From: Pyrinomonadaceae bacterium
GTDB taxonomy: Bacteria; Acidobacteriota; Blastocatellia; Pyrinomonadales; Pyrinomonadaceae
Assembly (NCBI GenBank): GCA_035601415.1
Contig: DATNOG010000113.1
Span: forward strand, 1,890 to 65,889
DNA length: 64,000 nt
Reading direction: 5' to 3'
Shown here: positions 1,621 to 63,766 of the stretch, in pieces
How the letters are laid out: every line of letters begins with the position of its first letter
How positions within the stretch are numbered: the stretch's first letter is position 1
The notes under the pieces: model-generated
Seen by the model: the letters and a program-made list of their open reading frames with translations, nothing else
What the model was told of the DNA's origin: nothing
The model's database searches: none
Translations under genes and position numbers: made by a program

Positions 1621-1656
1621 TAGTTAGTCTGTAGTCAGTTGCATGTAGTTAGTTGC
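1621..1656. repeat. heptad-tandem array, single arm (GTYAGTN family)
   Basis: tagttagtctgtagtcagttgcatgtagttagttgc lies 5 nt upstream of the valS ATG. Same 7-mer family as 12557 and 32855. Only a weak partner arm near 1725-1745. Confidence 0.5.
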
Positions 1657-1770
1657 AAAAGACGCATTGTAATCCACAGTGCAGACTTTTTCATGTGGCG
1701 CGTACGCTAATACCCGTTCATTTGACTACCTACTCTATAGCAAGATCGTATATCCCTTAATTGGAGCGAC

Positions 1771-1887
1771 ATGAAGTCAGTACTACCTCGCGGTAGCGGG
1801 TGGTTTTGTTCTCTATAGACTGGCAATTCACGGGCTGAAGCTGGCAATCGATCACCCACCGCTACCGCGAGGTGGTACTGACTTCAT
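1771..1887. repeat. MITE-like element: ~33-nt terminal inverted repeats around a 50-bp centre
   Basis: atgaagtcagtactacctcgcggtagcgggtgg (1771-1803) has a near-exact reverse complement at 1854-1887 (one mismatch and one indel by eye). The GCGGTAGCG core is shared with 61097-61218. Confidence 0.6.
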
Positions 1888-1913
1888 ACCCCCACGGGCA
1901 TTCGATAGATAAC

Positions 1914-1952
1914 CAAAGAAAAAGCAGGCGGCCTTTTCGGGCAGCGCCTGCT
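1914..1952 (-). terminator. rho-independent terminator after the 1976-3094 gene
   Basis: Minus strand reads AGCAGGCG-(14-nt loop)-CGCCTGCT followed by TTTTTCTTT, about 25 nt after the stop codon. Confidence 0.7.
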
Positions 1953-1975
1953 TCATTAATTAGCGAGGGACGCGG

Positions 1976-3094
1976 TTAAGAATTCTTCTCTTCAAGTTGC
2001 CGCTTGATCATCAGCTCCGCAAGCTGCGGCACAACTTCCCAGGCGATTTCCTGCACAACTTTTTCGGAAAGCTGTTCAACGGCACGCCGCGCGATTGCGT
2101 CAATCAGTTGCGGCGACAATTCGCCGGATGCATTAACTGATCGAGTACTGGTTTCGCTAGCTGCCGCTTGCGTGTTCTCCACCTTGAGCGCTTGCTCGGG
2201 TTCAACAGCCGCCGCCTGCTCGACCGGCGCTTCCATAATGCGCGGAAACTCCTGCGTGCGCGCCATCTGGTCCAGCGTAGGAGTTGAACGCATCGAGCCT
2301 ACGCTACCGCTATCGCGCTTGCGACGCATGAATGACGGCGCTGAATACGCGGCCACAGCGGGCGAAGGCTCAGCGGGTTCGTCGAGGTCTAAATCCAAAA
2401 CAAAGTCGTCTGCGATACTGGCCCCGGCAATTTTCACGTCACTGAGATCAAGCAATACGTCAGCCGCACTGTCGTCAGTTTGTGAAGCCCCGTGCAACTC
2501 GGGACGTTTGCTTTCTATTGTTGGATCAATATCAAGCGGTTTCGCCTTTTGCGCTTCCTGCTTTGCCGCGTAGTAGGCAACGACTTCAGCCTGCTCATCC
2601 GGAAGCGGGAGCGTATCGGCAGTCGTGATTTGCAGTTCTTCTTCCGTCAGTTTTTCCGGTTCAGGCGGCTCGCGGTGGTGCGGCAGTTCCGCTGTCGGAA
2701 TCCGTTCCTCTGCCGCGCGGCCGGAAACGAGCACGCCAACTTTATCGATAAGCTTGCGGATTGATTGAAAAGGCTTCGTCAAGGTATCGTCCGCGCCCAC
2801 CCGGCGCGCCTCCGCTTCGTCGAACGGCTCAAACGAGCCTACCAAAAGGATAACAGGAATATGCTTCAGCCGGTCATTTTGTTTTATGTGCTCGCAAACT
2901 TCGTAACCGCCCATCTGCGGCATGAAGACATCGGCGAGCACAATATCCGGCGCAAACTCGTTTAACTTTTCAATCGCCTCGCGGCCATTGTTGACAGTTA
3001 ATACGGTGACGCCCTCGTCGGCAAAGGTGAGGTCCACAACCTTTTGAATCGTGATTGAATCGTCGGCAAGTAGAAGTTTTTTGCCAGCTAACAA
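1976..3094 (-). CDS. response regulator: N-terminal receiver, long Pro/Glu/Asp-rich linker, conserved helical C-terminus (RomR-like architecture)
   Basis: 372 aa with TTG start. Receiver motifs: KKLLLADDSITIQK..DIVLADVFMPQMGGYEV..TKPF. About 200 aa of low-complexity acidic/Pro-rich sequence, then ELSPQLIDAIARRAVEQLSEKVVQEIAWEVVPQLAELMIKRQLEE. Confidence 0.8.
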   Translation of the reverse strand: MLAGKKLLLADDSITIQKVVDLTFADEGVTVLTVNNGREAIEKLNEFAPDIVLADVFMPQMGGYEVCEHIKQNDRLKHIPVILLVGSFEPFDEAEARRVGADDTLTKPFQSIRKLIDKVGVLVSGRAAEERIPTAELPHHREPPEPEKLTEEELQITTADTLPLPDEQAEVVAYYAAKQEAQKAKPLDIDPTIESKRPELHGASQTDDSAADVLLDLSDVKIAGASIADDFVLDLDLDEPAEPSPAVAAYSAPSFMRRKRDSGSVGSMRSTPTLDQMARTQEFPRIMEAPVEQAAAVEPEQALKVENTQAAASETSTRSVNASGELSPQLIDAIARRAVEQLSEKVVQEIAWEVVPQLAELMIKRQLEEKNS

Positions 3095-3256
3095 AGCTTG
3101 GTAACCTTAGCTGAATTGCGCCACTGGCGGGCTCAAGATTTGAATACAGTTGGCGTCTTGCTGTTTTCGATCTGGCGGCTTAAAAATAGCTGAGCCGCAT
3201 TTCGAAACTAACACCCGCGCCAATTGCCAGTCAAGAACTTTAGGCTGTTGAATTTG

Positions 3257-4180: not shown

Positions 4181-4189
4181 TTGAAAGGT

Positions 4190-4609: not shown

Positions 4610-4616
4610 TTCTTAT

Positions 4617-12556: not shown

Positions 12557-12585
12557 GGTCAGTAGTCAGTTGTTAGTCGTTAATT
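12557..12585. repeat. heptad-tandem array, single arm (GTYAGTN family), filling the murC|murG gap
   Basis: ggtcagtagtcagttgttagtcgttaatt, read as GTCAGTA GTCAGTT GTTAGTC GTTAATT. Confidence 0.55.
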
Positions 12586-14880: not shown

Positions 14881-16275
14881 CTAATTTTCGATTGCCGATT
14901 GCCGATTGCCGATTGCCGCGGCTAGCCGACCTACTTCTTCTTTAAAGACGCGGCCGCGATGTTCAAAACTATCGAACATGTCGAAACTCGCGCACGCCGG
15001 CGCCAGCAAAACGATGTCGCCCGGCTGCGCTGCCTCGAACGAAAGCGTGACTGCATCTTTCATGTCGCCGGCAAACTCAGTCGTTGCAAATTCTCCCAGC
15101 TCGCCGGCGATTGTTTGCGCATCCTCGCCAATCAGTACCAGCTTGCGCACCTTTTCCTGAATCAGCGGAGCTAGCGGAAGATAGGGCGCCTTCTTTCCAC
15201 GTCCGCCCAGGATCAAAATTATCTTTCCCGACTGGTCGGCGAAAGCCTCCAGCGCCTTCAGCGTCGCGTCGACGCTCGTCGCTTTTGAGTCGTTATAAAA
15301 CTGAACCGCATTCAATTCAGTAACAAACTCAAGGCGATGTTCGACTGGCTCAAAATTCTTCAACGTTTCGCGCATCGAATCAGGCGGCGCGCCGCAGGCC
15401 AGGCCCGCTGCTAACGCAGCCAGCACATTCTCAACATTGTGCAGGCCACGCAGTTTCATTTCATCGCGTTGCAGCAAAACCCTTTCGCCATCTTTCATGC
15501 GCGAAACGATCTCGCTGCCGCGCAGGAACAAACCTTCAGCGAGTTCCTGTTTGACGCTGAACCTGGCCACATGTGCACGCAGACTGTTTGCCCAACCCGA
15601 AACGATCTCGTCGTCTGCATTTAGAATTGCCAGATCGCCCGCATCCTGGTTCATAAAAATCCGGTGCTTGGCGCCGGCGTAGTCAGTCAATGATTCGTAA
15701 CGATCCATGTGATTCGGCGTAACGTTTAAGACAGCGGCAACGGCCGGATGAAAATCCTTAATCGTCTCCAACTGAAAACTTGATAGCTCGGCGACTGTCC
15801 AGCCATCTTCGCGAGAACTCTCAACCAGCGAAATCAGGGGCGTGCCAATGTTGCCACCTACTTGCGTTGGCACACCGGCGTTTTTCAAAAATTCTCCAAC
15901 GAGCGTCGTGGTCGTTGTTTTGCCATTCGAGCCCGTTATCGCCACGATGCGCCCATGCAAAAATCGCGATGCCAGCTCAACCTCTCCAACCACTTCCGCG
16001 CCGGCCCGTTTGGCATAGCGAATGGGAATGGATTTCGTTGGCAGGCCCGGACTGACAACCACCAATTCGATCTGGTCCAACAACCAACTTGGCGCCTCGC
16101 CCGGCAACAAGCCCACTCCATCGTCCTTTAGTGCCAGCGCCTCGGCGTTCCACTTTTCCAGCGGCTTCGAATCGTTGAGCGCGACCGTTGCACCGCGCTT
16201 TGCCAAAAACTTCGCGCAAGCAATTCCACTGCGCGCCGCTCCCATCACCAAAACTTTCTTGCCGTTGACGTTCAT
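14881..16275 (-). CDS. murD: UDP-N-acetylmuramoylalanine--D-glutamate ligase
   Basis: 464 aa: VLVMGAARSGIA, ITGSNGKTTTTTL. The last 11 codons (AIGNRQSAIEN) are encoded by a heptad array. Confidence 0.92.
   Translation of the reverse strand: MNVNGKKVLVMGAARSGIACAKFLAKRGATVALNDSKPLEKWNAEALALKDDGVGLLPGEAPSWLLDQIELVVVSPGLPTKSIPIRYAKRAGAEVVGEVELASRFLHGRIVAITGSNGKTTTTTLVGEFLKNAGVPTQVGGNIGTPLISLVESSREDGWTVAELSSFQLETIKDFHPAVAAVLNVTPNHMDRYESLTDYAGAKHRIFMNQDAGDLAILNADDEIVSGWANSLRAHVARFSVKQELAEGLFLRGSEIVSRMKDGERVLLQRDEMKLRGLHNVENVLAALAAGLACGAPPDSMRETLKNFEPVEHRLEFVTELNAVQFYNDSKATSVDATLKALEAFADQSGKIILILGGRGKKAPYLPLAPLIQEKVRKLVLIGEDAQTIAGELGEFATTEFAGDMKDAVTLSFEAAQPGDIVLLAPACASFDMFDSFEHRGRVFKEEVGRLAAAIGNRQSAIEN
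14889..14916. repeat. 4 x CGATTGC heptad array forming the 3' end of murD
   Basis: cgattgc repeated four times exactly. Same 7-mer family as 63681-63766. Confidence 0.8.
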
Positions 16276-16278
16276 ACA

Positions 16279-16455
16279 GTGAGCGGTGAGCGGTGAGCGG
16301 TGAGCAGTAAGATCGGCGAAAGGTCTGCTCTATTCCCAAAGTCACTTGTTACCAAACTCATTCGGTCTGCGCCCCACTCATCCCTGCCTAAAAATTGCTC
16401 TGACCCTGCTTACCGCTCACCGCTTACTGCTTACCGCTTACCGCTCACTGCTCAC
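16279..16455. repeat. heptad inverted-repeat element (GTGAGCG/GTAAGCG family) with a ~97-bp ORF-less centre, filling the murD|mraY gap
   Basis: Left arm gtgagcg x3 + gtgagca + gtaag (16279-16311). Right arm cttaccgctcaccgcttactgcttaccgcttaccgctcactgctcac (16409-16455) is its reverse-complement type. Confidence 0.85.
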
Positions 16456-16456
16456 T

Positions 16457-17611
16457 TCACCGCAGCTTCAGCGTCGACAGACTCAACAGTGCAAACAGGA
16501 TCGCCAGAATCAAAAAGCGAAAGACGATCTTCGACTCCTTCCAATCCTGCATTTCAAAGTGGTGATGAAGCGGCGTCATCTTAAACATGCGCCGCCCGGT
16601 GCCCGTCGTGCGTTTAGTCATCTTGAAAACGCCGACTTGCAACACCACTGAAAGCGCTTCAATCACAAAGACACCGCCCACCATCAACAGCATGAACTCC
16701 TGTTTGGTCAGCACGGCAACAGTGCCAATGGCCCCGCCAATAGCCAGACTGCCGACGTCGCCCATGAAGACTTCGGCCGGCGGCGCGTTGTACCAAAGAA
16801 AGCCCAAACTCGCGCCCGCCATTGCGCCGCAAAATACTGTCAACTCGGCTGCCTCAGGCCGGTGCGTCAATTCCAGATAACGGGCCCAGCGCGCGTCGCT
16901 GGCGAGATAAGTAAAGCCCGTCAGCGCCGTCATCGCGATGAAGGTCACGCTGATGGCCAAACCATCGAGGCCGTCTGTCAGGTTCACTGCGTTTGATGAG
17001 CCCAACAGAACGACAATGATCAGCACCAGGTAAACATAAGGACCGATAAAGCTCTTCCCGTTTGGATCGGCCGTCGCTTTCAGAAACGGTATGCTGACGT
17101 TCCAAGAATAGTCGCTCGCAAAATATTTCGTCAGAATAAAAAGAACGATCCAAACGCCGACCGCCACCAGCAATTGACCGAGCAGCTTCTGCCTGCCGGT
17201 CAAACCGAGACTGCGCTGTTTCGACATCTTGTAGTAATCGTCGGCAAAACCGATGGCGCCAAACAACAACATCGCAATTACCACCGTCCACACGTAAACA
17301 CTTGAGAGTCGCGCCCAAAGCAAAGTCGAAACAATTACCGAACCGACAATCAGCACGCCGCCCATCGTGGGCGTGCCGCGCTTGGCCATATGACCCTGTG
17401 GCCCTTCTTCGCGAATCTGTTGTCCGATATTCCATTTTCGTAAACCTTCGATTAGCTTGCCGCCAAACAACAACGACAGCAGCAGCGCGGTGATCGAGGC
17501 GTAAGCTGTGCGAAAAGTAACGTACTGAAAAACATTGAGCGCCTTGACGAGATACCAATCCTTATCCTTGAAGTGGTTATAAAAGAGTTCGTATAGAACG
17601 TAATAGATCAT
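16457..17611 (-). CDS. mraY: phospho-N-acetylmuramoyl-pentapeptide transferase
   Basis: 384 aa: [25 protein letters not shown]. Confidence 0.93.
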
Positions 17612-22095: not shown

Positions 22096-22167
22096 CTGAG
22101 ATCTGGAATTTGAGATCTGAAATCAGAAGCTTGAGAGCCTGAACTTTACTCAGATTTTAAATCTAAA
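22096..22167. repeat. heptad-type inverted repeat (GAGATCT/GAAATYT) in the ftsL|rsmH gap
   Basis: ctgagatctggaatttgagatctgaaatcag .. actcagattttaaatctaaa. The arms are only imperfectly complementary by eye. Confidence 0.45.
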
Positions 22168-23165: not shown

Positions 23166-23245
23166 GTGAAGAGTGATAAGTGAAAGGTGAAGAGTCGAAC
23201 GTCCGTTGTTTTGTCCGATTACTTTTCACTCTTCACTTTTCACTG
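23166..23245. repeat. heptad inverted-repeat element (GTGAAGA/GTGAAAG family) in the rsmH|mraZ gap
   Basis: Left arm gtgaagagtgataagtgaaaggtgaaga. Right arm acttttcactcttcacttttcac. About 25-bp centre. Confidence 0.8.
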
Positions 23246-23831: not shown

Positions 23832-24035
23832 TACCAATATCCGCGAAAACCTTAAGTTTTCAGGCGCTTGGATCCCGCAAACAAACTTACTGTTCGCCTA
23901 TCGTTCGTCGGGAGTGGTAAAAGAGCTGAGGTTCCTTCAAGAAAGAATTTACCAACGAGGGATCCCGCCTGTAACTTTTGATCAAGTATCGGTGTCTAAT
24001 TAAGTGGAAACAAGGTAAGAACTGTGTAAGTTTCC

Positions 24036-24065
24036 TTGAACTTTCATGTGGATTGAGCGTATATT
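24036..24065 (+). promoter_or_regulatory. candidate promoter of the RHH/2-TM module
   Basis: TTGAAC-18 nt-TATATT. A weaker second candidate, TTGACG-18 nt-TATCAG, lies at 24080-24109. Confidence 0.35.
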
Positions 24066-24205
24066 CTGGGTGAAAATGCTTGACGCGGGAGTGAAAGCCA
24101 TGTTATCAGAGTTGTGCGCCCTTTCCCGGGTGCCTTTGGTCATCGCCTCTCTCGACTCCCAAACCTCTCTTCCCGTTTCAAATTTCAACAAAGAGGAGTA
24201 TTGCT

Positions 24206-24427
24206 ATGAGTAGTGCAGCAGCAAGAGGCTTTACGTTTACCATTGACGAAACAACCGAGAGAGTTTTAGATAGTCTGAAATCTCGATTGGGCAAGACTTC
24301 AAGAGCTGAGGTTTTGAGAAAAGCTATAGCTCTTTTGGAAGTCGCAACTTCGGCTAAAGATGATGGTAACGATATCGCAATCGTGGACAAAAACGGTGAT
24401 ATCGTTACGAGGATCATGCTCGTGTGA
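24206..24427 (+). CDS. ribbon-helix-helix (CopG/Arc-like) DNA-binding protein, antitoxin-like
   Basis: 73 aa. AAGAGGAG RBS 7 nt upstream. FTFTIDETTERVLDSLKSRLGKTSRAEVLRKAIALLE fits the strand-helix-helix pattern. About 43% G+C by hand count. Confidence 0.7.
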   Translation: MSSAAARGFTFTIDETTERVLDSLKSRLGKTSRAEVLRKAIALLEVATSAKDDGNDIAIVDKNGDIVTRIMLV

Positions 24428-24771
24428 CCGATACTTCTAATCAGATAAGTCTAACTGAACGAGAAGGCAAGCTCCGCCTAGATAGTGAACTCAATCTTAC
24501 GGCTATTGAGGCCAGGCTTCGAATCGAAGAGGGCCGGGTTCGCCTAGAGAGCGGGAGAACAGACATTGCGCTACGCCGACGTATGGCCTATTGGCTGCTT
24601 GGTTTGTTCTCAGTAAACACCGCGGGCGCACTTGCTATGATTTTTTTGGTTGGCTTTGGCAAAATGTCCTTATCGGAGAAAGTTATAATTTCGGTTCTAG
24701 GAGCAACCGTGGTCGAAGCCGCCGCGATGCTTGTAACAGTGACAAAGTATTTATTCCCCGCCAAGAGCTGA
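24424..24771 (+). CDS. small membrane protein: charged helical N-terminal half plus a C-terminal 2-TM hairpin; no family recognised
   Basis: 115 aa. GTG start overlaps the upstream stop (GTGTGA). Hydrophobic stretches YWLLGLFSVNTAGALAMIFLVGF and VIISVLGATVVEAAAMLVTV. Confidence 0.6.
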   Translation: MTDTSNQISLTEREGKLRLDSELNLTAIEARLRIEEGRVRLESGRTDIALRRRMAYWLLGLFSVNTAGALAMIFLVGFGKMSLSEKVIISVLGATVVEAAAMLVTVTKYLFPAKS

Positions 24772-24799
24772 GCAACGACAATTCGTTGAATATACAGAT

Positions 24800-24816
24800 A
24801 GGCCCGCGCTGGGCCT
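24800..24816 (+). terminator. weak terminator-like hairpin after the 2-TM gene
   Basis: AGGCCC-gcgct-GGGCCT followed by tgatgtatatt. The T-tract is poor. Confidence 0.3.
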
Positions 24817-26634: not shown

Positions 26635-26713
26635 TAGGACAGACATTCCTGCCTGTCTGTTTTGGAAAACTGCGTTACCACGGATAGACAGTTCAGGAAT
26701 TCCTGCCTGTCTG
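26634..26713. repeat. REPIN-like doublet of the GGACAGRCAGGAATGYCTGTCC hairpin family
   Basis: gtaggacagacattcctgcctgtctg (26634-26659) and agacagttcaggaattcctgcctgtctg (26686-26713). Confidence 0.75.
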
Positions 26714-32501: not shown

Positions 32502-32572
32502 GTAGGACAGGCATTCCTGCCTGTCCAAATCTTCGCTATCAACAACTGGACAGACAGGAATGTCTGTCCTAC
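32502..32572. repeat. REPIN-like doublet (GGACAG hairpin family) filling the intergenic gap
   Basis: gtaggacaggcattcctgcctgtcc (32502-26), 21 bp, ggacagacaggaatgtctgtcctac (32548-72). Confidence 0.85.
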
Positions 32573-32844: not shown

Positions 32845-32854
32845 TTCTCTTGGT

Positions 32855-32951
32855 CCGTTGTCAGTTGTTAGTTGTTAGTTGTTCGGATCGTCTTTAACTG
32901 TGCAAAAACAACTAGCAACTGACTACTGACCACTGATTACTGACGACTGAC
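32855..32951. repeat. heptad inverted-repeat element (GTYAGTN family) between BMC-P paralogs 2 and 3
   Basis: Left arm ccgttgtcagttgttagttgttagttgttcgg. Right arm caactagcaactgactactgaccactgattactgacgactgac, which runs into the last codons (..VSRQ*) of the upstream BMC-P gene. Confidence 0.8.
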
Positions 32952-33213: not shown

Positions 33214-33343
33214 GTTCGTGAACTGTGAACCGTGAACAGTAAACTGATAGGTATCCCAGGCACTGCGCAGTCGCTAAAAGCTTGATATGAATCCTGGTTT
33301 CCAGTTCCCGTTTTCAGTTCACTGTTCACTGTTCCCGGTTTAC
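33214..33343. repeat. heptad inverted-repeat element (GTGAACN family) between BMC-P paralogs 1 and 2
   Basis: Left arm gttcgtgaactgtgaaccgtgaacagtaaactg. Right arm ccagttcccgttttcagttcactgttcactgttcccggtttac. Confidence 0.8.
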
Positions 33344-33899: not shown

Positions 33900-33917
33900 T
33901 CAGTTGCTCCTTTAACT

Positions 33918-34104
33918 CGTGAATCGTAAATCGTGAATAGTAGTTGACTGTTAGATTACTCTGTTTCGTCAATTTGAACTAGTTGTACTTCTTAACTACC
34001 CCGGTATTCTTTGGATCTAACATCCAAGACATCGTAATCCTTTTCCGTTAGGTTCTAATCTTCCTTTGAACTATTTACGATTTACGATTTACGATTCACG
34101 AATG
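33918..34104. repeat. heptad inverted-repeat element (GTGAATC/GTAAATC family) with a ~115-bp centre, between the aldolase and BMC-H genes
   Basis: Left arm cgtgaatcgtaaatcgtgaatagtagttgactgttag. Right arm ctatttacgatttacgatttacgattcacgaatg. Confidence 0.8.
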
Positions 34105-34980: not shown

Positions 34981-35044
34981 GCTCAGAGTCCAAGCTTTAG
35001 CTTGCCGTGTCGAGTCCACGCAACCTACAGGTTGTACTCTCAAC
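34981..35044. repeat. 65-bp palindromic element, copy A (GAGTACAACC..AAGCTAAAGCTTG..)
   Basis: Reverse complement gagtacaacctgtaggttgcgtggactcgacacggcaagctaaagcttggactctgagc aligns with 36611-36676. Confidence 0.7.
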
Positions 35045-35793: not shown

Positions 35794-35897
35794 AGTTTCG
35801 AGTTTCGAGTTTAGAGTGTCGGGTATCAGGTGTCAGGTGCCAGGTGTCTGTTTGATTCCTGCCTGAACCCGATACCTGACACCTGATACCCGACACC
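35794..35897. repeat. heptad inverted-repeat element (AGTTTCG + GGTRYCA family) in the rex|ruvA divergent gap
   Basis: Left arm agtttcgagtttcgagtttagagtgtcgggtatcaggtgtcaggtgccaggtgtc. Right arm cccgatacctgacacctgatacccgacacc. Confidence 0.8.
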
Positions 35898-35912
35898 CTG
35901 CCTGGAAGCAGC

Positions 35913-36610: not shown

Positions 36611-36676
36611 GTTTGGAGTACAACCTTCAGGTTCCTAACTGGTGGGCGTACTCAAGCTAAAGCTTGTACTCTGAGC
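36611..36676. repeat. 65-bp palindromic element, copy B (inverted relative to copy A)
   Basis: gtttggagtacaaccttcaggttcctaactggtgggcgtactcaagctaaagcttgtactctgagc in the ruvA|ruvB gap. Confidence 0.7.
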
Positions 36677-43796: not shown

Positions 43797-45212
43797 ATGC
43801 AAAAACAGTCCCTCCCGCAGTCGCGTCAAACGCCTCAATCGCTCGACGTACTCATTCTCGCTGCCGGTCTCGGTACGCGCATGAAATCGAAGCGAGCGAA
43901 AGTATTGCACGAGCTTGGCGGCTCTCCCTTGATTGCGTACGTCTGCCGCGCAGCGAAGGCGCTCAACCCTGAGAAGATCTACGTCGTGGTGGGTCATCAG
44001 GCGGCCGAAGTCGAAAAGTCCGTCAAGGCAGAGGTCGGCAGCCTGGCTGAATTTGTGACGCAAGCGCAGCAACGCGGAACCGCGGACGCAGTATTGTCCG
44101 CGCGCCCACAACTCAACAATCGCAACTCCCTGCTTGTGATCCTTTCAGGCGACGTGCCTTTGTTGAAAGCAGAGACACTCGAACACTTCATCGACGAACA
44201 TCGCTCAAGCGGAGCCGCCTGCTCGGTTCTCAGTGTGCGACTTGAAAACCCGACTGGCTATGGCCGCATCGTCAGAGATGCGAACGATCACTTTGCTCGC
44301 ATAGTTGAACAACGCGATGCTACCGATGAAGAGCGCAGAATCAAGGAGATTAACTCGGGAATTTATTGTTTCGACAGCGGCAAACTTTTGCTCGCACTCG
44401 ATCGCGTCAAGCCGGCGAACGATCAGGGCGAGTTTTACTTAACTGATGTCGCTGAGATCCTTATAAAGCAAGGCGAGAAAGTGAACGTCTATCTGCGCAG
44501 CGACGCGCGCGAAGTTTCCGGCATCAACACACGTGCGGAATTGGCAGAGTTTGAAAATCTCCTGCGGCGCAACACCATCCGCAAATTGATGTTGGAAGGC
44601 GGCGTGACCTTTCTCGATCCCTCCCGCGCATACATCAGCGCTAGCGCCACGCTGGGTCAGGATTGCGTTATTTACCCAGACGTTGCGATTGAAGGCGATT
44701 CAGTGGTTGGCACGGGTTGCGAGATTCATTCAGGCGCAAGGATAACCAACTCGCGCTTGGGAAGTAACGTGGTGATAAAGGACCATTGTGTAATCATCGA
44801 TTCCACCATCGAGTCAAACTGTGCAATCGGCCCCTTCGCACACCTGCGCATGGGCACCACGATTGAAGAAGGCGCGGCAATTGGTAACTTTGTCGAAGTA
44901 AAAAAATCGCGCCTCGGCCGCGGTTCAAAGTCGATGCATCTAACCTATCTCGGCGACGCGACCATTGGCGAGAAAACTAATATTGGTGCGGGAACGGTCA
45001 CTTGTAATTACGATGGCAAGAACAAGCATCCAACAATTATTGAAAACAATGTGCGCATCGGGTCAGACACTATGCTGGTCGCGCCGGTAAGAGTCGGCAG
45101 CGGTTCGGTGACGGCTGCCGGTTCAGTTGTTACTGAAGACGTGCCGCCGGACACGCTTGTCGCCGGCGTTCCGGCAGTGGTGAAGAAACGTTTGAAAGGC
45201 CGTGAAGAGTAA
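43797..45212 (+). CDS. glmU: bifunctional UDP-GlcNAc diphosphorylase / GlcN-1-P N-acetyltransferase
   Basis: 471 aa: LILAAGLGTRMKS, plus C-terminal hexapeptide repeats. Confidence 0.93.
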   Translation: MQKQSLPQSRQTPQSLDVLILAAGLGTRMKSKRAKVLHELGGSPLIAYVCRAAKALNPEKIYVVVGHQAAEVEKSVKAEVGSLAEFVTQAQQRGTADAVLSARPQLNNRNSLLVILSGDVPLLKAETLEHFIDEHRSSGAACSVLSVRLENPTGYGRIVRDANDHFARIVEQRDATDEERRIKEINSGIYCFDSGKLLLALDRVKPANDQGEFYLTDVAEILIKQGEKVNVYLRSDAREVSGINTRAELAEFENLLRRNTIRKLMLEGGVTFLDPSRAYISASATLGQDCVIYPDVAIEGDSVVGTGCEIHSGARITNSRLGSNVVIKDHCVIIDSTIESNCAIGPFAHLRMGTTIEEGAAIGNFVEVKKSRLGRGSKSMHLTYLGDATIGEKTNIGAGTVTCNYDGKNKHPTIIENNVRIGSDTMLVAPVRVGSGSVTAAGSVVTEDVPPDTLVAGVPAVVKKRLKGREE

Positions 45213-45300
45213 AAAGTGAAAAGTGAAGAGTCAAGAAAGAACGCTATCAACGGGAGCTTCTTGCCTTCTGACTTTTCACTTTTTACTTTTCACTCTTTAC
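45202..45300. repeat. heptad inverted-repeat element (GTGAAGA/GTGAAAA family) filling the glmU|glmS gap
   Basis: Left arm gtgaagagtaaaaagtgaaaagtgaagagtca (it contains the glmU stop). Right arm tgacttttcactttttacttttcactctttac. Confidence 0.85.
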
Positions 45301-45313
45301 TAAAGGGAAACAT

Positions 45314-48366: not shown

Positions 48367-48404
48367 AAGTAAGTGTGAGCCGTGAGCAGTGAGCAGTAAG
48401 CCGC
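48367..48404. repeat. left heptad arm (GTGAGCC/GTAAGCC family) of the cassette around the four-helix-bundle gene
   Basis: taagtaagtGTGAGCCGTGAGCAGTGAGCAGTAAGCCg. It pairs 24/28 by eye with the reverse complement of 48901-48932. Confidence 0.8.
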
Positions 48405-48524
48405 AAAAGAGGTTAGAAGCTTTTCGCGACCCTGAACGGTGTGCTTAAATAAACCACACCCTGCCTTTGGATCTTTAAATCGCCGCATCAAGGATCCCTT
48501 TACCAATCTGCGAAAGGGTGCATC

Positions 48525-48884
48525 ATGGACAAACCACATAAGCGGCTGCTCGCGTGGCAGAAGAGCATGAATTTGGTGGTCGACATATATGAATTAACCA
48601 AGAGCTTTCCACGAGATGAGATTTATGGGCTCACCTCTCAAGTTCGCCGTGCCTCAGTGTCGGTGCCCTCGAACATAAGTGAGGGCGCCACTGGTCGCTC
48701 AGTGTCGCAGTTCCGAAATTTCTTGAGCGTGGCGATCGGTTCGCTAAATGAAATTAGCACTCAACTTGAAATCGCATATCGCGTTGGCTACCTTGATAAG
48801 CGGAAGCTCGATGCAATAGAAAAGCAAGTAGACGATTGTCTAGCGCTGACGTATGGCCTGCGAAAGAGCCTGAGAGAAAACTGA
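48525..48884 (+). CDS. four-helix-bundle protein (23S rRNA intervening-sequence protein / Avd-like family)
   Basis: 119 aa: LLAWQKSMNLVVDIYELTKSFPRDEIYGLTSQVRRASVSVPSNISEGATGRS..FRNFLSVAIGSLNEISTQLEIA..GYL. Confidence 0.85.
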   Translation: MDKPHKRLLAWQKSMNLVVDIYELTKSFPRDEIYGLTSQVRRASVSVPSNISEGATGRSVSQFRNFLSVAIGSLNEISTQLEIAYRVGYLDKRKLDAIEKQVDDCLALTYGLRKSLREN

Positions 48885-48900
48885 AGTGCTTTTGGTTTTT

Positions 48901-48932
48901 CGGCTCACTGCTAACTGCTCACCGCTTACTGG
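48901..48932. repeat. right heptad arm of the cassette
   Basis: cGGCTCACTGCTAACTGCTCACCGCTTACtgg. It ends 2 nt before the uvrD ATG. Confidence 0.8.
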
Positions 48933-48934
48933 TT

Positions 48935-51370
48935 ATGGATTTTCTTTCTTCCTTAAATCCCGAACAACAGATCGCCGTCCAGCATACTGAAGGGCCGTTG
49001 CTGATCCTTGCGGGCGCGGGCTCGGGGAAGACGCGCGTCATTGCGCACCGCATTGCGTACCTCATTGCGGAAAAAGGGGTGGCGCCGTGGAACATTCTCG
49101 CGGTTACTTTTACTAACAAGGCTGCGGAAGAGATGCGTTTGCGCGTGCAGCGTCTGCTGCGTGATCAGGAGCTTTCCAGTGCGCCGCTCGTCTCCACGTT
49201 TCACAGTTTGTGCGTGCGCATATTGCGGCAGGACATCGAAAAACTAAACGATAAATACAACCGCACCTTCACCATCTACGACCAGGATGATTCGCAGCGA
49301 CTAATTAAGAATTGCATAAAGGATCTTGGTTACGACGAGAAGTACCTGGGCGTGCGCGCTACGCAGTCGACTATTAGTTCTGCGAAGAATCGCGGCGAAG
49401 ACGTAGACGCGTTTGCGGCCCGTGCTGATTACGTGGACGAACGCCGAGCTGCGATGGCCCGCGTTTACAAGCTGTATGAGGAACGCCTGCACGCCAACAA
49501 CGCACTCGATTTTGACGACCTGATGATCAAAGCCGTGCGCTTGCTGCGTGACGTTCCCGAAGTACGCGAGAAATACAACAACAAGTTCAAATACATTTTG
49601 GTGGATGAATACCAGGATACAAACTCGCTCCAGTTTGCTTTAATTAGCTTGCTAACTGAGAAGCAGCAAAACATCGCGGTGGTGGGTGATGAGGATCAGT
49701 CGATCTATAAATGGCGCGGCGCCGACATCACCAATATCCTCAACTTCGAAAAGCATTTCCCTAACACCAGGACGATTCGCCTCGAACAAAACTATCGTTC
49801 GACACAGACGATCCTTGACGTTGCCGGCGCAGTGGTGAAACACAATTTCGAGCGCAAGGGGAAGAGCCTCTGGACGTCGAACCCGAAAGGCGAACTCGTT
49901 CGTTATTACCAGGCTTTCGATGCCGAAGCGGAAGCACGCTGGGTAGCATCGAAGATCGTTGAGCATCGACGCGAGGAATACGACCTGCGCGCGGCTGTTT
50001 TGTACCGCACGAATTCCCAATCCCGAGTTTTCGAAGAAGCGATGCGCCGCGTGGGTTTGGCTTACAACATCGTGGGTGGCTTTTCGTTTTACGAGCGCAT
50101 GGAAGTGCGCGACATCATCGCGTATCTAAAATTGGCCCTGAACCCGAACGATTCCATCGCGCTGCAACGAGTGATTAACAGTCCACCGCGCGGTATTGGC
50201 AAACAAACCCTCGACGAGCTTACTCGGCGCGCAAATGACTTTGATCTAACACTGTGGGAAACGATCAAGCTGGTCACTGAAAAGCCCGACGGCCTGAGCA
50301 TGCGCGCGGTTTCGGCGTTGCGAAGCTTTCGCAGGATCATCTTGCGTCTTGGTGAAATGGCCGGAGTAGACAACAATCCGACAACTGCCGAAGGCTCTAC
50401 ACCCAACACCCAACAGCCAACAACCTCGGACGCCGTCGTCTCCGATATCGTTAAAGCCGCCATCCTCGACACTGGTTACGAGAATGCGCTCAAAGGCGAA
50501 AAGACCGACGAAGCGGAAGCGCGGTTGGAAAATTTGCAGGAACTGGTCAACGCCGCGGTCGACTATGACGACGAGGGCATTGAAGGCTTGCGAGAGTTTA
50601 TCGATCACTCCGCTTTGGTTTCCGATCAGGATCAATACAAACGCGACGCGCCCGTAACACTGATGACGGCGCACTCGGCCAAGGGTCTTGAGTTCCCTGT
50701 CGTCTTTATCGCCGGTCTCGAAGATGGTCTATTTCCGCACTCGCGATCGGCAACAGACCCGGCAGAGATGGAAGAAGAGCGTCGTCTTTGTTATGTAGCG
50801 ATGACGCGCGCGGAAAAGTTTTTATATGTTACGCACGCGATGAAACGTCGCGTGTATGGCGAGGAGCTGCCCTCCGAACCTTCGCAGTTCTTAAACGAAA
50901 TGCCGTTGGAGTTAATGGAAGACTTGTCACTGGGAAAATCCTGGTTGTCGTTCGCCCGGGGTTCAGCGGCGATTGATTACGAACAGGGTGAGTATCGCAA
51001 GGAGAAAAAGAAGTACGCCGGAAAAACTTACGACAGCGTGGATTCCATCGCCGATTTCTTCAAGCAGCGCGCAGCGCAACTTGGCAATACTGGAGGCGGC
51101 TTTCAGTCGAGTAAGGAACAGCGCGAGCGGGACAAGAGCTCGATAGTTAGAAAAAGCTCTGCGCGAGTCCAAAGTCCGACACTCGACACCGGACAGCCGA
51201 CACCTCCCTCCGAATTCTTGCCCGGCTCTTACGTAAAGCATGCGAAATACGGTCGCGGACTGGTGCTGCGCCGCGAAGGTGCCGGCGATTCTCTTAAACT
51301 CACAGTTACATTTCCCGGTTACGGTCAGAAGAAACTAGTGCAAAAGTATGCCGGACTCGAAAAGGCTTAA
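48935..51370 (+). CDS. uvrD: UvrD/PcrA-family ATP-dependent DNA helicase with a C-terminal Tudor-like tail
   Basis: MDFLSSLNPEQQIAVQHTEGPLLILAGAGSGKTRV..VDEYQDTN... Start trimmed to ATG 48935; the ORF-track extension reads through the repeat arm. Confidence 0.93.
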   Translation: MDFLSSLNPEQQIAVQHTEGPLLILAGAGSGKTRVIAHRIAYLIAEKGVAPWNILAVTFTNKAAEEMRLRVQRLLRDQELSSAPLVSTFHSLCVRILRQDIEKLNDKYNRTFTIYDQDDSQRLIKNCIKDLGYDEKYLGVRATQSTISSAKNRGEDVDAFAARADYVDERRAAMARVYKLYEERLHANNALDFDDLMIKAVRLLRDVPEVREKYNNKFKYILVDEYQDTNSLQFALISLLTEKQQNIAVVGDEDQSIYKWRGADITNILNFEKHFPNTRTIRLEQNYRSTQTILDVAGAVVKHNFERKGKSLWTSNPKGELVRYYQAFDAEAEARWVASKIVEHRREEYDLRAAVLYRTNSQSRVFEEAMRRVGLAYNIVGGFSFYERMEVRDIIAYLKLALNPNDSIALQRVINSPPRGIGKQTLDELTRRANDFDLTLWETIKLVTEKPDGLSMRAVSALRSFRRIILRLGEMAGVDNNPTTAEGSTPNTQQPTTSDAVVSDIVKAAILDTGYENALKGEKTDEAEARLENLQELVNAAVDYDDEGIEGLREFIDHSALVSDQDQYKRDAPVTLMTAHSAKGLEFPVVFIAGLEDGLFPHSRSATDPAEMEEERRLCYVAMTRAEKFLYVTHAMKRRVYGEELPSEPSQFLNEMPLELMEDLSLGKSWLSFARGSAAIDYEQGEYRKEKKKYAGKTYDSVDSIADFFKQRAAQLGNTGGGFQSSKEQRERDKSSIVRKSSARVQSPTLDTGQPTPPSEFLPGSYVKHAKYGRGLVLRREGAGDSLKLTVTFPGYGQKKLVQKYAGLEKA
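51174..51204. repeat. heptad array (NCCGACA x4) embedded in the uvrD C-terminal linker
   Basis: gtccgacactcgacaccggacagccgacacc encodes ..SPTLDTGQPTP... It is the reverse-complement type of the GTGTCGG/GGTGTCA arm at 35.8 kb. Confidence 0.5.
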
Positions 51371-52924: not shown

Positions 52925-53011
52925 GTAGGACAGACATTCCTGTCTGTCCATTCGCTGGTTCGGCTTCGCTCATCAAACGAAAAGAGGGACAGGCAGGAAT
53001 GCCTGTCCTAC
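52925..53011. repeat. REPIN-like doublet (GGACAG hairpin family)
   Basis: gtaggacagacattcctgtctgtcc (52925-49), 37 bp, ggacaggcaggaatgcctgtcctac (52987-53011). Each unit is a perfect 9-bp stem with a 4-nt loop. Confidence 0.9.
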
Positions 53012-57427: not shown

Positions 57428-57575
57428 TGTTTAAGTGTTAGCTGCTCGGTAAATCTGTGGAAGGGAAAAGTTAAGAGAGATCGCTTCCAGAAACAGATTA
57501 TGTTCACGATTAGAATGTAATCGCAAAGAGCCACGTAGAACGGGCATTGTTGCCTATCCCCTCATTTTCAAAACT

Positions 57576-57597
57576 GGACAGACAGGAATGTCTCTCC
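57576..57597. repeat. solitary degenerate GGACAG-family hairpin unit
   Basis: ggacagacaggaatgtctctcc. Confidence 0.6.
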
Positions 57598-57638
57598 GAC
57601 CACGGTCTTGTATGCTTCGACTGCGGTCAAGCTGATTC

Positions 57639-57870: not shown

Positions 57871-57949
57871 GTAGGACAGGCATTCCTGGCTGTTCCTGCT
57901 TCATCTCAACTGCAAGCACAAACTGGACAGACAGGAATGCCTGTCCTAC
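57871..57949. repeat. REPIN-like doublet (GGACAG hairpin family)
   Basis: gtaggacaggcattcctggctgttcc (57871-96) and ggacagacaggaatgcctgtcctac (57925-49). The second unit overlaps the stop of the PHP gene. Confidence 0.85.
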
Positions 57950-60976: not shown

Positions 60977-61096
60977 CGGTGCGCAGTCTAGATTAGACGT
61001 AAAGTATTTTCCAAGTTTTCTGGAAAAGATGCCAATTGGCACTTGTGCCTCAACCCGTGACCAATGGCAAGGGTCGTATACTGTGGGTCGACGAAT

Positions 61097-61218
61097 ACAG
61101 AACCGGGAGCGGTAGCGACCGGGTCGGATCTCCGAATACTGAAGAGCTGTCGAGTGAAAATTTTCCGGAGCTCCCGGTTATGCCCACGCCACCCGGTCGC
61201 TACCGCTCCCGGTTCTGT
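61097..61218. repeat. MITE-like element: perfect 28-nt terminal inverted repeats around a 66-bp centre
   Basis: acagaaccgggagcggtagcgaccgggt (61097-61124) has its exact reverse complement at 61191-61218. The centre holds a ccggagctcccgg near-palindrome. Confidence 0.75.
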
Positions 61219-61283
61219 CTTTGTTTTGCTCCAGCTGCAACTTCTAACTCGACGCCGTCTTCAATTAGCAAAGCTCCCAAAGT

Positions 61284-61313
61284 TTGCGTCAATAACGCAC
61301 TCGAAGCTATTAT
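61284..61313 (+). promoter_or_regulatory. candidate liv-operon promoter
   Basis: TTGCGT-18 nt-TATTAT, about 115 nt upstream of the binding-protein ATG. Confidence 0.3.
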
Positions 61314-61429
61314 GCAGGCTCGATTTAAGCTGACATTAAAGCTTTGCCCGATTGGCCGCGAAAGCTCGCGGCCCTGGCTCCCTCTAACAGATGTCGTCGC
61401 CAAAAACATTTCGCCTTTGTGAGGAAAAT

Positions 61430-62743
61430 ATGAAAAGAATTCTGCTTTCGCTTGGACTAATTGCATCTCTCATTTTTGTCTTTGCTTGTGAACGCAAAGG
61501 TGGGCCAGGAGCCGGCGGCAACTCCGGGCCTATCGTGATCGGTTATTACGGTGATCTTTCGGGACGCACCTCAAACTTTGGGCAGTCAACCAAGAATGGT
61601 GTCGAGATGGCTGCTGACGAGATTAACAAAGCGGGAGGAATCAATGGCCGGCAGATTACGATTCTTTCTGAAGACGACGAGGGCCGCCCGGAAAAAGCAG
61701 CGACAGTCGTAACCAAGCTTATCGATCAGGATCGCGTTGTTGCGCTCCTCGGCGAAGTCGCATCTGGAAATACACTGGCGGCAGCGCCCAAAGCACAGGC
61801 CGCAAAGGTTCCGATGATTTCCCCATCGTCGACGAATCCCGCCGTTACTCAGGTCGGCGATTATATCTCGCGTGTTTGCTTTATCGATCCATTTCAAGGC
61901 GCCGTCATGGCCAAGTTTGCAGCCAACACATTAAAAGCGAAGAAGGCGGCGATCATGCTCGACTTCAATTCGCCTTACAGTCGCGGGCTTACCGAATTTT
62001 TTGAGTCCAGCTTCACCAAGCTCGGTGGACAGATCGTAAACAAACAGTCGTACACTCAGGGCGATCGCGATTACAAAGGTCAGTTGACGGCAATTCGCTC
62101 GACGAATCCCGACGTGATTTATGTTCCCGGCTACTATGGCGAGGTTGGCGTGATCGCCAAGCAGGCAAAGCAGCTTGATATCAAAGCCCCGATGCTCGGC
62201 GGCGATGGTTGGGATTCAACGCAACTCTGGGATTTGGGCGGCGACGCGTTGAATGGAGACTATATTTCCAATCACTATTCGGTCGACGATCCCTCACCGG
62301 CGATCCAAAAGTTTGTAGCTGCTTACAAAGCCCGCTATGGCAACGTGCCCGACGCGCTCGCGGCGCTGGGTTACGACGCGATGATGGTACTTGCCGATTC
62401 CATCAAACGCGCCGGCACCACAGAAGGACCAAAACTTAAGGATGCCATCGCTGCAACCAAGGATTTTATCGGTGTGACTGGGACCATCTCGTTGGATAAA
62501 GACCGGAATGCTGTCAAGCCGGCGGTTGTGCTCAAACTACAGGACAAAAAATATGTCTACGTGGAGACGATTTATCCCGAGGGGATGACTGCGCCTGCTG
62601 CAGCTCCAGCTGCCCCGGCAACGTCAGGGACTTCGCCAGCGGCTGCGCCCGTCTTGTCTCCAGCCAAGGCAGGAGCGGCGGCTCCTGCTAAAGCGGCTTC
62701 GCCCGCTGTTGCAACTAAAAAGCCCGCAGCGTCTCCCCAATAA
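61430..62743 (+). CDS. branched-chain amino-acid ABC transporter substrate-binding lipoprotein (LivJ/K-like) with an Ala/Pro-rich C-terminal tail
   Basis: Start at ATG 61430. Lipobox LIFVFAC. GYYGDLSGRTSNFGQST..VALLGEVASG... Confidence 0.85.
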   Translation: MKRILLSLGLIASLIFVFACERKGGPGAGGNSGPIVIGYYGDLSGRTSNFGQSTKNGVEMAADEINKAGGINGRQITILSEDDEGRPEKAATVVTKLIDQDRVVALLGEVASGNTLAAAPKAQAAKVPMISPSSTNPAVTQVGDYISRVCFIDPFQGAVMAKFAANTLKAKKAAIMLDFNSPYSRGLTEFFESSFTKLGGQIVNKQSYTQGDRDYKGQLTAIRSTNPDVIYVPGYYGEVGVIAKQAKQLDIKAPMLGGDGWDSTQLWDLGGDALNGDYISNHYSVDDPSPAIQKFVAAYKARYGNVPDALAALGYDAMMVLADSIKRAGTTEGPKLKDAIAATKDFIGVTGTISLDKDRNAVKPAVVLKLQDKKYVYVETIYPEGMTAPAAAPAAPATSGTSPAAAPVLSPAKAGAAAPAKAASPAVATKKPAASPQ

Positions 62744-62761
62744 CACCAAGCTACGCGTTGA

Positions 62762-63679
62762 ATGGATACTTTTGTTCAGCAACTCATTAATGGCCTGACG
62801 ATCGGCGCAATTTACGCGCTGATCGCTTTGGGCTACACCATGGTCTACGGCATTCTCCGCCTAATCAACTTTGCGCACGGCGACATCTACATGGTCGGAG
62901 CGTTTGTTGGTTATTTCCTCGCCTTCGAACTTGGCTTCGCCGCCGGGCCATCGCTGGTCGGACTTAGCGTGGTGCTGATCGGATCGATGATTGCCGCGGC
63001 GCTGGTGGGCATGGCCATTGAAAGATTCGCTTATCGTCCGATCCGCAAATACGCGCGCATGACCACGTTGATTACTGCCATCGGCGTGTCACTGCTGATA
63101 GAAAATCTTTTTGTCGCGCGCCTGGGCGCAGCACCGCGCGCCTTCCCGCAACTGCTTCGCGAACAAAGCTACACGCTATTTGGCAACGCTGCGATTTCCA
63201 AATCGCAGATATTGATCTTTGCGGTTTCGGTAGCGTTGATGGTGCTGCTTCAATGGGTAATCTTCAAGACGAAGGTAGGTACGGCGATGCGCGCCGTTTC
63301 TTTCAACCTTAACTCGGCTAAGTTAATGGGCATCAATACGGACTTTATTATTTCGTTTACCTTTGCGCTCGGTTCGGCGCTGGCGGCGGCAGGTGGCGTA
63401 CTTACCGCACAATACAATCCGCAGATCGATCCGTTGATGGGCATCATCACCGGCTTAAAAGCTTTCGTCGCTGCGGTGCTCGGCGGCATTGGTAATATTC
63501 CAGGCGCGGTGCTCGGCGGGCTGCTCATTGGCATTGCGGAAACTTTTGTCGTTGGTTACGGACAAAACGTCGGCGTCCCCACCACCTTTCGCGATGCAGT
63601 CGCTTTCGCAATTCTGATTCTCGTTCTGCTATTTCGACCGACGGGCCTGCTGGGCTCGACGGTCCAAGAGAAAGTCTAG
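62762..63679 (+). CDS. livH: branched-chain amino-acid ABC transporter permease
   Basis: 305 aa: MDTFVQQLINGLTIGAIYALIALGYTMVYGILRLINFAHGD. Confidence 0.9.
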   Translation: MDTFVQQLINGLTIGAIYALIALGYTMVYGILRLINFAHGDIYMVGAFVGYFLAFELGFAAGPSLVGLSVVLIGSMIAAALVGMAIERFAYRPIRKYARMTTLITAIGVSLLIENLFVARLGAAPRAFPQLLREQSYTLFGNAAISKSQILIFAVSVALMVLLQWVIFKTKVGTAMRAVSFNLNSAKLMGINTDFIISFTFALGSALAAAGGVLTAQYNPQIDPLMGIITGLKAFVAAVLGGIGNIPGAVLGGLLIGIAETFVVGYGQNVGVPTTFRDAVAFAILILVLLFRPTGLLGSTVQEKV

Positions 63680-63680
63680 T

Positions 63681-63766
63681 CATTGCCGATTGGCGATTGC
63701 CGATTTCCGATTGAGACTTACTAGTTCCTCTTTTCAATCGGCAATCGGAAATTGGCAATCGGAAAT
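63681..63766. repeat. heptad inverted-repeat element (CGATTGC/CGATTTC family) filling the livH|livM gap
   Basis: Left arm cattgccgattggcgattgccgatttccgattgag. Right arm tcaatcggcaatcggaaattggcaatcggaaat. Confidence 0.85.

Follow-up and report, generated by a model that had tools for sequence, protein, structure and literature searches.

Heptanucleotide arrays between the genes of a Pyrinomonadaceae bacterium: a lineage-wide class of paired elements and their possible kinship with PF05635 cassettes

What are the short tandem arrays of heptanucleotides that recur, mostly as two inverted copies, between the genes of a Pyrinomonadaceae bacterium, and what keeps them there? The sequence considered here is a stretch of 64,000 nucleotides (hereafter the window) from contig DATNOG010000113.1 of assembly GCA_035601415.1, positions 1,890 to 65,889 of the forward strand. 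The original prediction had noticed such arrays in the gaps between co-oriented genes, suspected selection for structure or periodicity and mentioned, among other possible roles, the footprint of a cassette-type mobile element, together with a possible co-occurrence with PF05635/TIGR02436 genes. This last idea turned out to be the most productive lead, as arrays of the same architecture bracket PF05635 genes in four phyla. We report that the arrays form a lineage-wide class of elements with conserved placement, and we tentatively propose that those lacking an open reading frame (ORF) are orphan relatives of PF05635 cassettes.

The arrays are specific to a period of seven. A strict scan, in which at least 85% of bases (≥18/21) must match the base one period away across three periods, returned 10 arrays of period 7 in the window and none of periods 4-6 or 8-12, and the same scan of 20 dinucleotide shuffles of the window found no array at periods 5-12. 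Tandem Repeats Finder reported period-7 repeats at nearly all the places originally listed, with sequences as described, and the gene contexts that had been named were all correct. Inverted pairing was recovered by a repeat finder at eight ORF-less pairs (Table 1; for the element starting at 35794 the paired part is 35813-35899) and also holds for the two arms that enclose the PF05635 gene, but not at 22096-22167, which had been listed among the pairs. When the ORF-less pairs were folded as RNA, eight of the nine did far better than shuffled controls (z −3.5 to −8.8), while 22096-22167 folded no better than chance (z −0.48) and, being a 14-mer direct repeat in two copies, was ruled out as a hairpin. 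Single arms showed no structure, as expected (z −1.5 for 1621-1657). Three single arrays differ in part from their first description: an imperfect GTYAGTT-type array does lie at 1621-1656, but a period of 14 nt fits it better than 7; the array placed at 14889-14916 is present as a perfect repeat that lies inside the MurD ORF and extends to 14918; and that of uvrD (51174-51204) is accompanied by a second one, at 50399-50422, which had been overlooked. Rfam covariance models at gathering score had no match in the window, which holds no rRNA either. Lastly, the heptamer had been said not to be conserved between loci. It does differ from locus to locus, but it is drawn from a small recurring vocabulary: at least seven families occur in 64 kb, each recurring at two or three loci, and 300 arrays collected from 1.33 Mb represent 84 of the 1172 possible heptamer classes, with ten families covering 81% of them.

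Arrays of this kind are equally found in related genomes. The MraY protein of the window is 96-99% identical to those of metagenome-assembled genomes (MAGs) labelled Pyrinomonadaceae or Blastocatellia (Acidobacteriota), and we compared 80 species-level relatives from such MAGs that carry the division and cell wall (dcw) cluster, 74 of which, non-redundant, were used for densities. The preference for intergenic DNA is strong: dcw gaps totalling 81 kb hold 246 arrays of period 7, and 978 kb of coding sequence hold 17, or 3.0 versus 0.017 per kb, an enrichment of about 175-fold; many of the coding arrays examined are array-encoded tails of MurD, and other periods between 5 and 11 gave at most six arrays in either category. 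Placement is conserved as well. Four gaps are hot, namely mraZ-rsmH (occupied in 43/58 species), murG-murC (34/62), murD-ftsW (34/68) and mraY-murD (28/80), whereas gaps of similar length are cold, with an array in 3/64 species for ftsL-pbp (85-160 nt in most species), in 1/48 for ftsQ-ftsA and in 0/51 for murC-murB. The heptamer found at a single gap varies by species (GTGAGCA, GTGGGCA, GTGGCCA, GGCAGAA, GTTTCGA, ATTGCCG, GTGTCAG), as does the length of the array; the second arm always complements the first, and both switch family together from one species to another. At murG-murC, relatives hold (CAACTGA)n or (AAGACCA)n. On a shorter time scale, six near-identical strains (99.3-99.9% identity) have arrays at identical places, strains L004 and L006 (numbers of this form are our labels) carry one extra 7-nt unit in the arm at 16.4 kb, and one strain shows two G>A changes within the 33-nt arm 16279-16311, among 14 differences over 11.6 kb. 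Paired heptamer arrays are a lineage-wide class of elements with conserved placement and length changes in steps of 7 nt. The original prediction had named three observations that would speak against it; instead, folding beats shuffles, positions are non-random and placement is conserved together with pairing.

The only PF05635 gene of the window sits between two inverted GTRAGCN arrays, upstream of uvrD. We gathered 80 metagenomic loci with homologues of this gene (55-98% identity), of which 67 had enough flanking sequence on both sides. A heptamer array was present upstream in 55 of these 67, downstream in 56, on both sides in 45 and as a complementary pair in 42, the unit being always GTRAGCN upstream and its complement downstream. 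The ada-uvrD context is shared by 22 of the 80 loci, and at least six further ones occur, hence at least seven in all: after a carbamoyltransferase gene, between a methyltransferase gene and rmlC, before degT, in msbA-yicC, in scpB-rluB and before a DUF1009-like gene. In most contexts the flanking ORFs are co-oriented with PF05635, and in several of those inspected no more than 0-3 nt separate the 3' arm from the ATG downstream; 3' arms abut in this way the start codons of uvrD, accC, cmr3 and yicC. Outside Acidobacteriota, PF05635 separates accB from accC in Xanthomonas campestris, a Xanthomonas sacchari homologue and Pseudoxanthomonas, with arrays of the GGGAATC and GATTCCC types on its two sides. 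On cyanobacterial and Gemmatirosa plasmids, inverted heptamer arrays accompany six of the eight PF05635 genes examined, the other two being one case of direct arrays and one weak case; the heptamers are GTRGGGA, GGGTGTR, GGCAGAA, GCAGGAG and GGAGATA, and GGCAGAA arrays lie on both sides of PF05635 in Stanieria and on the downstream side alone in Nostoc 7120. The background was gauged on 40 kb of the Nostoc punctiforme plasmid pNPUN01: five of the six heptamer arrays flank two adjacent PF05635 genes, which carry different heptamers, GTCGGAR and GGGTGTR.

The ada-uvrD site further indicates what the heptamer follows. Loci L181 and L184 have a GTRAGCN-type PF05635 gene with GTRAGCN arms, L183 has a different PF05635 paralogue with GCAATCA/CTGATTA arms, a heptamer close to the GCAATCG family of the window, and L182 and L180 have neither PF05635 nor heptamer arrays. 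It is therefore the protein, rather than the site, that the heptamer follows, and arms and gene are present or absent together in this small sample. A scan for consensus promoters and terminators around the cassette found nothing. All cassettes in the uvrD context have a −35-like hexamer, 16 nt and then TGnTTAAATGAA between the 5' arm and the ATG of PF05635, and a matching −10-like motif lies upstream of uvrD at both empty sites. If this conserved motif is a promoter, the 5' arm is not on the resulting mRNA; judging from its conservation, there may be a promoter inside the loop of the cassette and, in the uvrD context, the 5' arm probably stays off the transcript.

Is pairing, then, the property that selection maintains, as the original prediction had suggested? 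A stem selected on the mRNA should allow G-U but not A-C mismatches on the sense strand. We counted 58 mismatches of the sense type versus 90 of the antisense type in the dcw hairpins, and about 116 versus about 119 in the PF05635 cassettes, with no sense-strand signal in either set; minimum free energies (MFE) did not differ between sense and antisense strands (35 vs 27 loci, p = 0.38). Variant units are not mirrored between arms either. For GTRAGCN, agreement at the two variable positions between the two arms of a cassette was 0.597 over 62 cassettes, versus 0.599 ± 0.017 for arms taken from different cassettes, and in 45 ORF-less dcw hairpins the real order of units gave a complementarity of 0.814 versus 0.824 when permuted. 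Selection for structure thus finds no support at the level of base pairs, and from the strand and mirroring tests the arms look like two independent, oppositely oriented arrays of one degenerate motif, with five positions fixed and two free. As PF05635 homologues of as little as 55% identity retain the heptamer, sequence recognition is suggested rather than pairing alone. The pairs also have a polarity: the 5' arm is G-rich in 53/62 pairs and the 3' arm C-rich in 53/62 and, because an inverted repeat reads alike on both strands, the polarity belongs to the element and does not depend on the direction of transcription. We are inclined, with considerable reservation, to see the stem as a consequence of the architecture and not as the selected property.

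The opposite possibility is that paired arrays are purely structural RNA, selected as intercistronic stems (RNase III sites, 3'-end stabilisers or insulators) with no heptamer-specific protein, and that PF05635 survives best when lodged in stems, as it does in 23S rRNA intervening sequences. The folding of the eight ORF-less pairs speaks for it, as do the conserved placement, the joint family change of both arms and the position of the stems, which in 27 of 41 cases start at or inside the upstream stop codon (within 3 nt) and run toward the next start. Other hairpin-forming repeat families occupy the mraY-murD gap in other species, and RNase III cuts the stem of the Coxiella intervening sequence and the heptamer hairpin of Haemophilus hmw. 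The strand and mirroring tests just described point the other way; a stem would not need a heptamer conserved over deep divergence, nor is there a structural reason for the G-first polarity; the promoter-like motif in the loop of uvrD-context cassettes leaves the 5' arm probably off the mRNA; and some arrays are single or lie within coding linkers. We consider this explanation somewhat unlikely.

Arrays do invade coding sequence that can tolerate them. An array may supply the stop codon of a gene, as for glmU, or the tail of a protein, as for MurD, whose last 13 residues are encoded by (GGCAATC)4 (14881-14920) and which is homologous to relatives only as far as residue 451 of 464. In UvrD, the linkers near residues 480-505 and 735-770 are strongly length-variable among orthologues (L089-L184), and both uvrD arrays of the window sit in these hypervariable linkers. 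The linkers of relatives contain short recurring peptides such as VQSPKSK, which is the three-frame reading of (GTCCAAA)3; the match of such peptides to heptamer arrays in three frames indicates that the arrays generate disordered protein linkers. Another alternative is that all elements are neutral or selfish by-products at the DNA level, where slippage favours 7-nt units, arrays expand without function in unconstrained DNA, inverted pairs persist as self-renewing quasi-palindromes and the association with PF05635 reflects shared permissive sites. Copy number changes in 7-nt steps, the fast turnover of length and sequence among species, the UvrD linkers and read-through MurD tails, and the lack of both strand bias and mirrored variation speak for it, and it agrees with the polymerase-slippage idea of Mrazek, in the form in which PMC4679880 and PMC4692102 cite it. 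Independent slippage does not predict, however, that gaps of similar length differ as sharply as ftsL-pbp and mraZ-rsmH, that the vocabulary is so small, that the two arms are always of one family with strict polarity, or that the heptamers around PF05635 are paralogue-specific in four phyla and missing at empty sites. We regard this explanation as unlikely.

A translation-level device, in which stop-to-start stems enforce translational coupling and unpaired A/C-rich arrays act as unstructured, Shine-Dalgarno-independent leaders, is very improbable: it would suit the stems that begin at or in a stop codon, the 3' arms that abut start codons, the abundance of stop codons in 5' arms and their scarcity in 3' arms, and the likeness of murG-murC arrays to the TAACTGA leader repeats of Beggiatoaceae, but about half of the stems end, on their 3' side, 25-36 nt short of the start codon, the hairpin at 35794-35899 sits between divergent genes, and both the link with PF05635 and the conserved heptamer sequence are left unexplained. 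Stop-codon seeding as the cause of the frequent GTGA/GTAA core was likewise set aside; its effect is moderate only, with stops in all three frames in 22/62 of the 5' arms.

The explanation that we favour, without great confidence, treats the ORF-less elements as orphans related to PF05635 cassettes and the heptamers as recognition units for a factor acting in trans. Each element consists of two short arrays, typically of four to six copies of one degenerate 7-mer, the G-rich array first and its complement second, and occupies one of certain gaps in runs of co-transcribed genes, where it reaches from the stop codon upstream nearly to the next start. Such elements would be the cargo-less counterparts of PF05635 cassettes, as orphan repetitive extragenic palindromes (REPs) and their paired form (REPINs) are to the genes of REP-associated tyrosine transposases (RAYTs) flanked by REPs. 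The trans factor would recognise the heptamer sequence, the flanked PF05635 protein, an Avd-like four-helix bundle, being the obvious candidate, and both the origin and the turnover of arrays would be DNA-level processes. Where both arms are on one transcript, an imperfect stem of 25-45 bp would form, the expected substrate of RNase III; cutting of the stem would let operons or rRNA tolerate an insertion, and such a role of RNase III is plausible by analogy with known systems. ORF-less arrays and those bracketing PF05635 in four phyla share the architecture and, at 16.3 kb, also the heptamer. Both solved homologues have five chains per PDB entry, Avd, an accessory protein of diversity-generating retroelements, is a pentamer, and arms have most often four units, then five, a statistic biased by the detection floor of about four units.

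Several observations weigh against this proposal. Neither tblastn nor a custom hidden Markov model (HMM) found PF05635 in the 80 dcw loci (1.3 Mb, with many hairpins), so that its co-location with every hairpin is rejected and any factor must act in trans. As the window has at least seven heptamer families and one PF05635 gene, cognate paralogues have to be assumed elsewhere. The loops are each of unique sequence, with matches at orthologous loci in the closest relatives and nowhere else; the ORF-less elements are therefore not copies of a mobile sequence, and for the same reason dispersed copies such as miniature transposable elements with inverted repeats (MITEs) were rejected. The arrays inside UvrD coding linkers fit a plain repeat process at the DNA level, one cyanobacterial cassette (L179) has direct and not inverted arrays, and the empty sites examined are just two. 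Finally, PF05635 proteins have no known catalytic or sequence-specific activity, and their role as heptamer binder is inferred.

A more specific version is that PF05635/TIGR02436 proteins bind tandem heptamers sequence-specifically, with about one repeat per subunit of a pentamer, and form with the arrays a repeat-protein system of the REP-RAYT type that would be widespread and has gone unrecognised so far; we hold this to be possible but doubtful. The window protein scores 20.9 bits with the Avd equivalog model, under the cut-off of 80, and membership in that family was rejected; anti-phage defence models (PADLOC) gave no match. The PF05635 family of "23S rRNA intervening-sequence proteins" counts thousands of members, and neither this family nor heptamer repeats have an accepted function. 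Their physical coupling across Acidobacteriota, Gammaproteobacteria, Cyanobacteriota and Gemmatimonadota, each paralogue with its own heptamer, turns two puzzles into one concrete hypothesis, for which a solved protein structure (XCC0516 of X. campestris, PDB 2GSC) and a defined candidate ligand, (GGGAATC)n, are at hand. The arrays also show that essential operons, among them dcw, accBC and glmUS, can accommodate long hairpins of repeats between cistrons.

Table 1. Heptamer arrays, hairpins and the PF05635 cassette of the window, with z-scores of RNA folding against shuffled controls
Feature	Coordinates	Strand	Remarks
Single imperfect GTYAGTT-type array	1621..1657		between two minus-strand ORFs; best fit is a 14-nt period in two copies
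Unpaired array filling the murG-murC gap	12557..12585	-	sense TAACGAC TAACAAC TGACTAC TGACC; ends 7 nt before murC ATG
Perfect (CGATTGC)x4.3 array	14889..14918	-	read through as the final 13 residues of MurD
mraY-murD hairpin, left arm, GTGAGCG/GTAAGCR	16279..16311		same heptamer family as the PF05635 cassette arms; hairpin folded as 16276-16458, z -6.5
mraY-murD hairpin, right arm, GCTYACY	16406..16456		94-nt loop (16312-16405) of unique sequence
14-mer direct repeat x2 in rsmH-ftsL gap	22096..22167		not a hairpin
mraZ-rsmH hairpin, GTGAAGA/GTGAAAA arms	23166..23245		z -4.65
Hairpin between two EutN (BMC-P) genes, GTTGTYA/ACTGACY arms	32851..32951		z -3.5
Hairpin between two EutN genes, GTGAACN arms	33214..33343		66-nt loop; z -3.5
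Hairpin between class II aldolase and BMC-H genes, GTRAATC arms	33913..34104		loop of about 130 nt; z -5.0
(AGTTTCG)x4 direct array, then GGTGTCA/GGTATCA hairpin	35794..35899		between divergent rex-like and ruvA genes; z -8.8
glmU-glmS hairpin, GTGAAGA/GTAAAAA arms	45202..45301		glmU stop TAA (45210-45212) inside array; z -8.25
PF05635 cassette, 5' arm, GTGAGCN/GTAAGCN	48367..48404	+	complementary to the 3' arm
Promoter-like TGnTTAAAT motif	48440..48450	+	putative, from its conservation between the 5' arm and the PF05635 start
PF05635/TIGR02436 four-helix-bundle protein gene, 119 aa	48525..48884	+	domain match
PF05635 cassette, 3' arm, GCTCACY/GCTTACY	48901..48932	+	ends 3 nt before uvrD ATG (48935)
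(ACACCCA)x3.4 array inside uvrD	50399..50422	+	hypervariable linker near residue 488
(CCGACAC)-type array inside uvrD	51176..51204	+	hypervariable linker before tudor domain, near residue 747
livH-livM hairpin, ATTGCCG/CGGCAAT arms	63681..63767		begins 2 nt past the livH stop codon; z -6.4

Some further cassettes and repeats deserve mention. At three metagenomic loci (L132, L136, L165), two tandem PF05635 genes each have their own G-rich and C-rich arrays, and extra outer arrays suggest nested or serial cassettes. PF05635 cassettes also lie in gaps of cas operons, between cas10 and cmr3 in Picosynechococcus (L178) and between cas6 and cas4 in Pseudanabaena (L179). A large screen lists "23S rRNA IVP" among CRISPR-associated genes (PMC10910872), and lodging in such gaps may explain why PF05635 is scored in this way. 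Other hairpin-forming repeats share the window with the heptamers. GTAG-tagged palindromes (GTAGGACAGGCATTCCTGCCTGTCC), mostly inverted doublets that resemble REP/REPIN, lie at 26634-26658, 32502-32572, 52925-53011, 57535-57600 and 57871-57949, and also in the mraY-murD gap of L010, L027 and L038, which elsewhere is filled by heptamer hairpins. A second family, GTCAGTACCACC..CGCGGTAGCGGGTGG with its complement, is found at 1771-1887 and 61091-61224, as well as in L012, L015, L028, L063 and L182; in the last of these it occupies the ada-uvrD site, where other species have the PF05635 cassette. A third inverted-repeat family (GAGTACAAGCTTTAGCTT ... AACCTGAAGGTTGTACTC) lies at 34986-35039 and 36616-36671, and in L026 and L045. 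Upstream of mraZ, about 950 bp (23861-24810) contain small ORFs without Pfam match; L004, 99.3% identical, has about 100 nt instead, and the difference is a strain-level insertion or deletion. A GGC-rich repeat with a period of 30 nt (26542-26629), unrelated to the heptamers, would encode a glycine-rich tail; it lies 3'-terminally in ORF 25744-26634, a match to the TPM_phosphatase gene called in L001.

How do these elements compare with known systems? Bacterial heptanucleotide repeats were reportedly first described in 1990, by Mazel, as the short tandemly repeated repetitive (STRR) sequences of cyanobacteria. The arrays of the window have the features of STRRs and of the prokaryotic long simple-sequence repeats (LSSRs) of Mrazek 2007, as the latter are summarised in PMC4679880 and PMC4692102: tandem 7-nt units head to tail in at least three copies, several families per genome, a strong bias for non-coding, intergenic DNA, and copy-number polymorphism in one-unit, 7-nt steps. 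STRRs and LSSRs are described as direct repeats, whereas inverted pairs, the polarity rule and the link with PF05635 are features of the arrays described here. A close match to the pairs is the GGGAATC repeat of Xanthomonas (Rehm et al. 2015, PMC4692102), for which the passages available to us give about 185 sites per genome with 70-75 pairs in convergent orientation, intergenic arrays of most often four units, positions common between species, variable length and an interpretation through G-quadruplex (G4) formation. The elements of the window are convergent pairs in the same sense, with arms on opposite strands, close together and the G-rich one first; Xanthomonas has one G-quadruplex-prone heptamer per genome, whereas at least seven families occur here in 64 kb. 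Those passages make no mention of GGGAATC arrays around the PF05635 gene of the accB-accC gap.

The intervening sequences (IVSs) of 23S rRNA with an S23p/PF05635 ORF, known from Coxiella and Leptospira (PMC4990558), equally place an ORF in the loop of an inverted-repeat stem. In Coxiella, the 28-bp terminal stem around the PF05635 ORF contains two to three tandem GACAGAT units, their number varying between strains, and RNase III cuts this stem (PMC4990558). IVSs lie inside rRNA genes; the elements of the window lie outside any 23S rRNA gene, between protein-coding genes, a PF05635 ORF within inverted repeats is found at 48367-48932 alone, and cleavage is predicted by analogy. REPs and REPINs with their RAYT genes (PMC3116915, PMC3733652) show the same combination of many orphan intergenic palindromes and a gene flanked by an inverted repeat. 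REPs, however, have one conserved, non-tandem sequence of 20-40 nt, and RAYT is an HUH transposase, whereas PF05635 is without known enzymatic activity; the flanked gene here is PF05635. With at least seven heptamer families and tandem units, identity with REP/REPIN is rejected. So is identity with CRISPR, in which unique spacers of similar length set apart repeats of 23-50 nt, compared with 7-nt units and no spacers here; on both points the original prediction was right. The TAACTGA repeats of Beggiatoaceae, cyanobacteria and Bacteroidetes (MacGregor 2015, PMC4679880) are heptamers just upstream of start codons with 7-nt indels between strains, and the murG-murC array of the window (AACTGAC/TACTGAC) resembles them in sequence and position. 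They differ in being almost all unpaired and of one heptamer, and no link with PF05635 was proposed for them (PMC4679880). In Haemophilus influenzae, the (ATCTTTC)n repeat of hmw is part of a 5' untranslated region (5'-UTR) hairpin whose processing by RNase III affects expression and repeat-number change (PMC12721329). There too, one arm of a long RNA hairpin processed by RNase III consists of a heptamer repeat; hmw is a single phase-variable virulence locus, and the other arm is a G-rich region and not a complementary array.

A literature search of incomplete coverage returned no report of heptamer arrays in Acidobacteria and no general link between PF05635 and heptamer arrays, the Coxiella IVS being the only prior hint. 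Heptanucleotide repeats and convergent heptamer pairs are already known; the general coupling of PF05635 with heptamer arrays appears undescribed. If the proposed repeat-protein system were true, it would account for the STRRs of cyanobacteria, the GGGAATC pairs of Xanthomonas, the hairpins of Pyrinomonadaceae and the stems of ORF-bearing rRNA intervening sequences.

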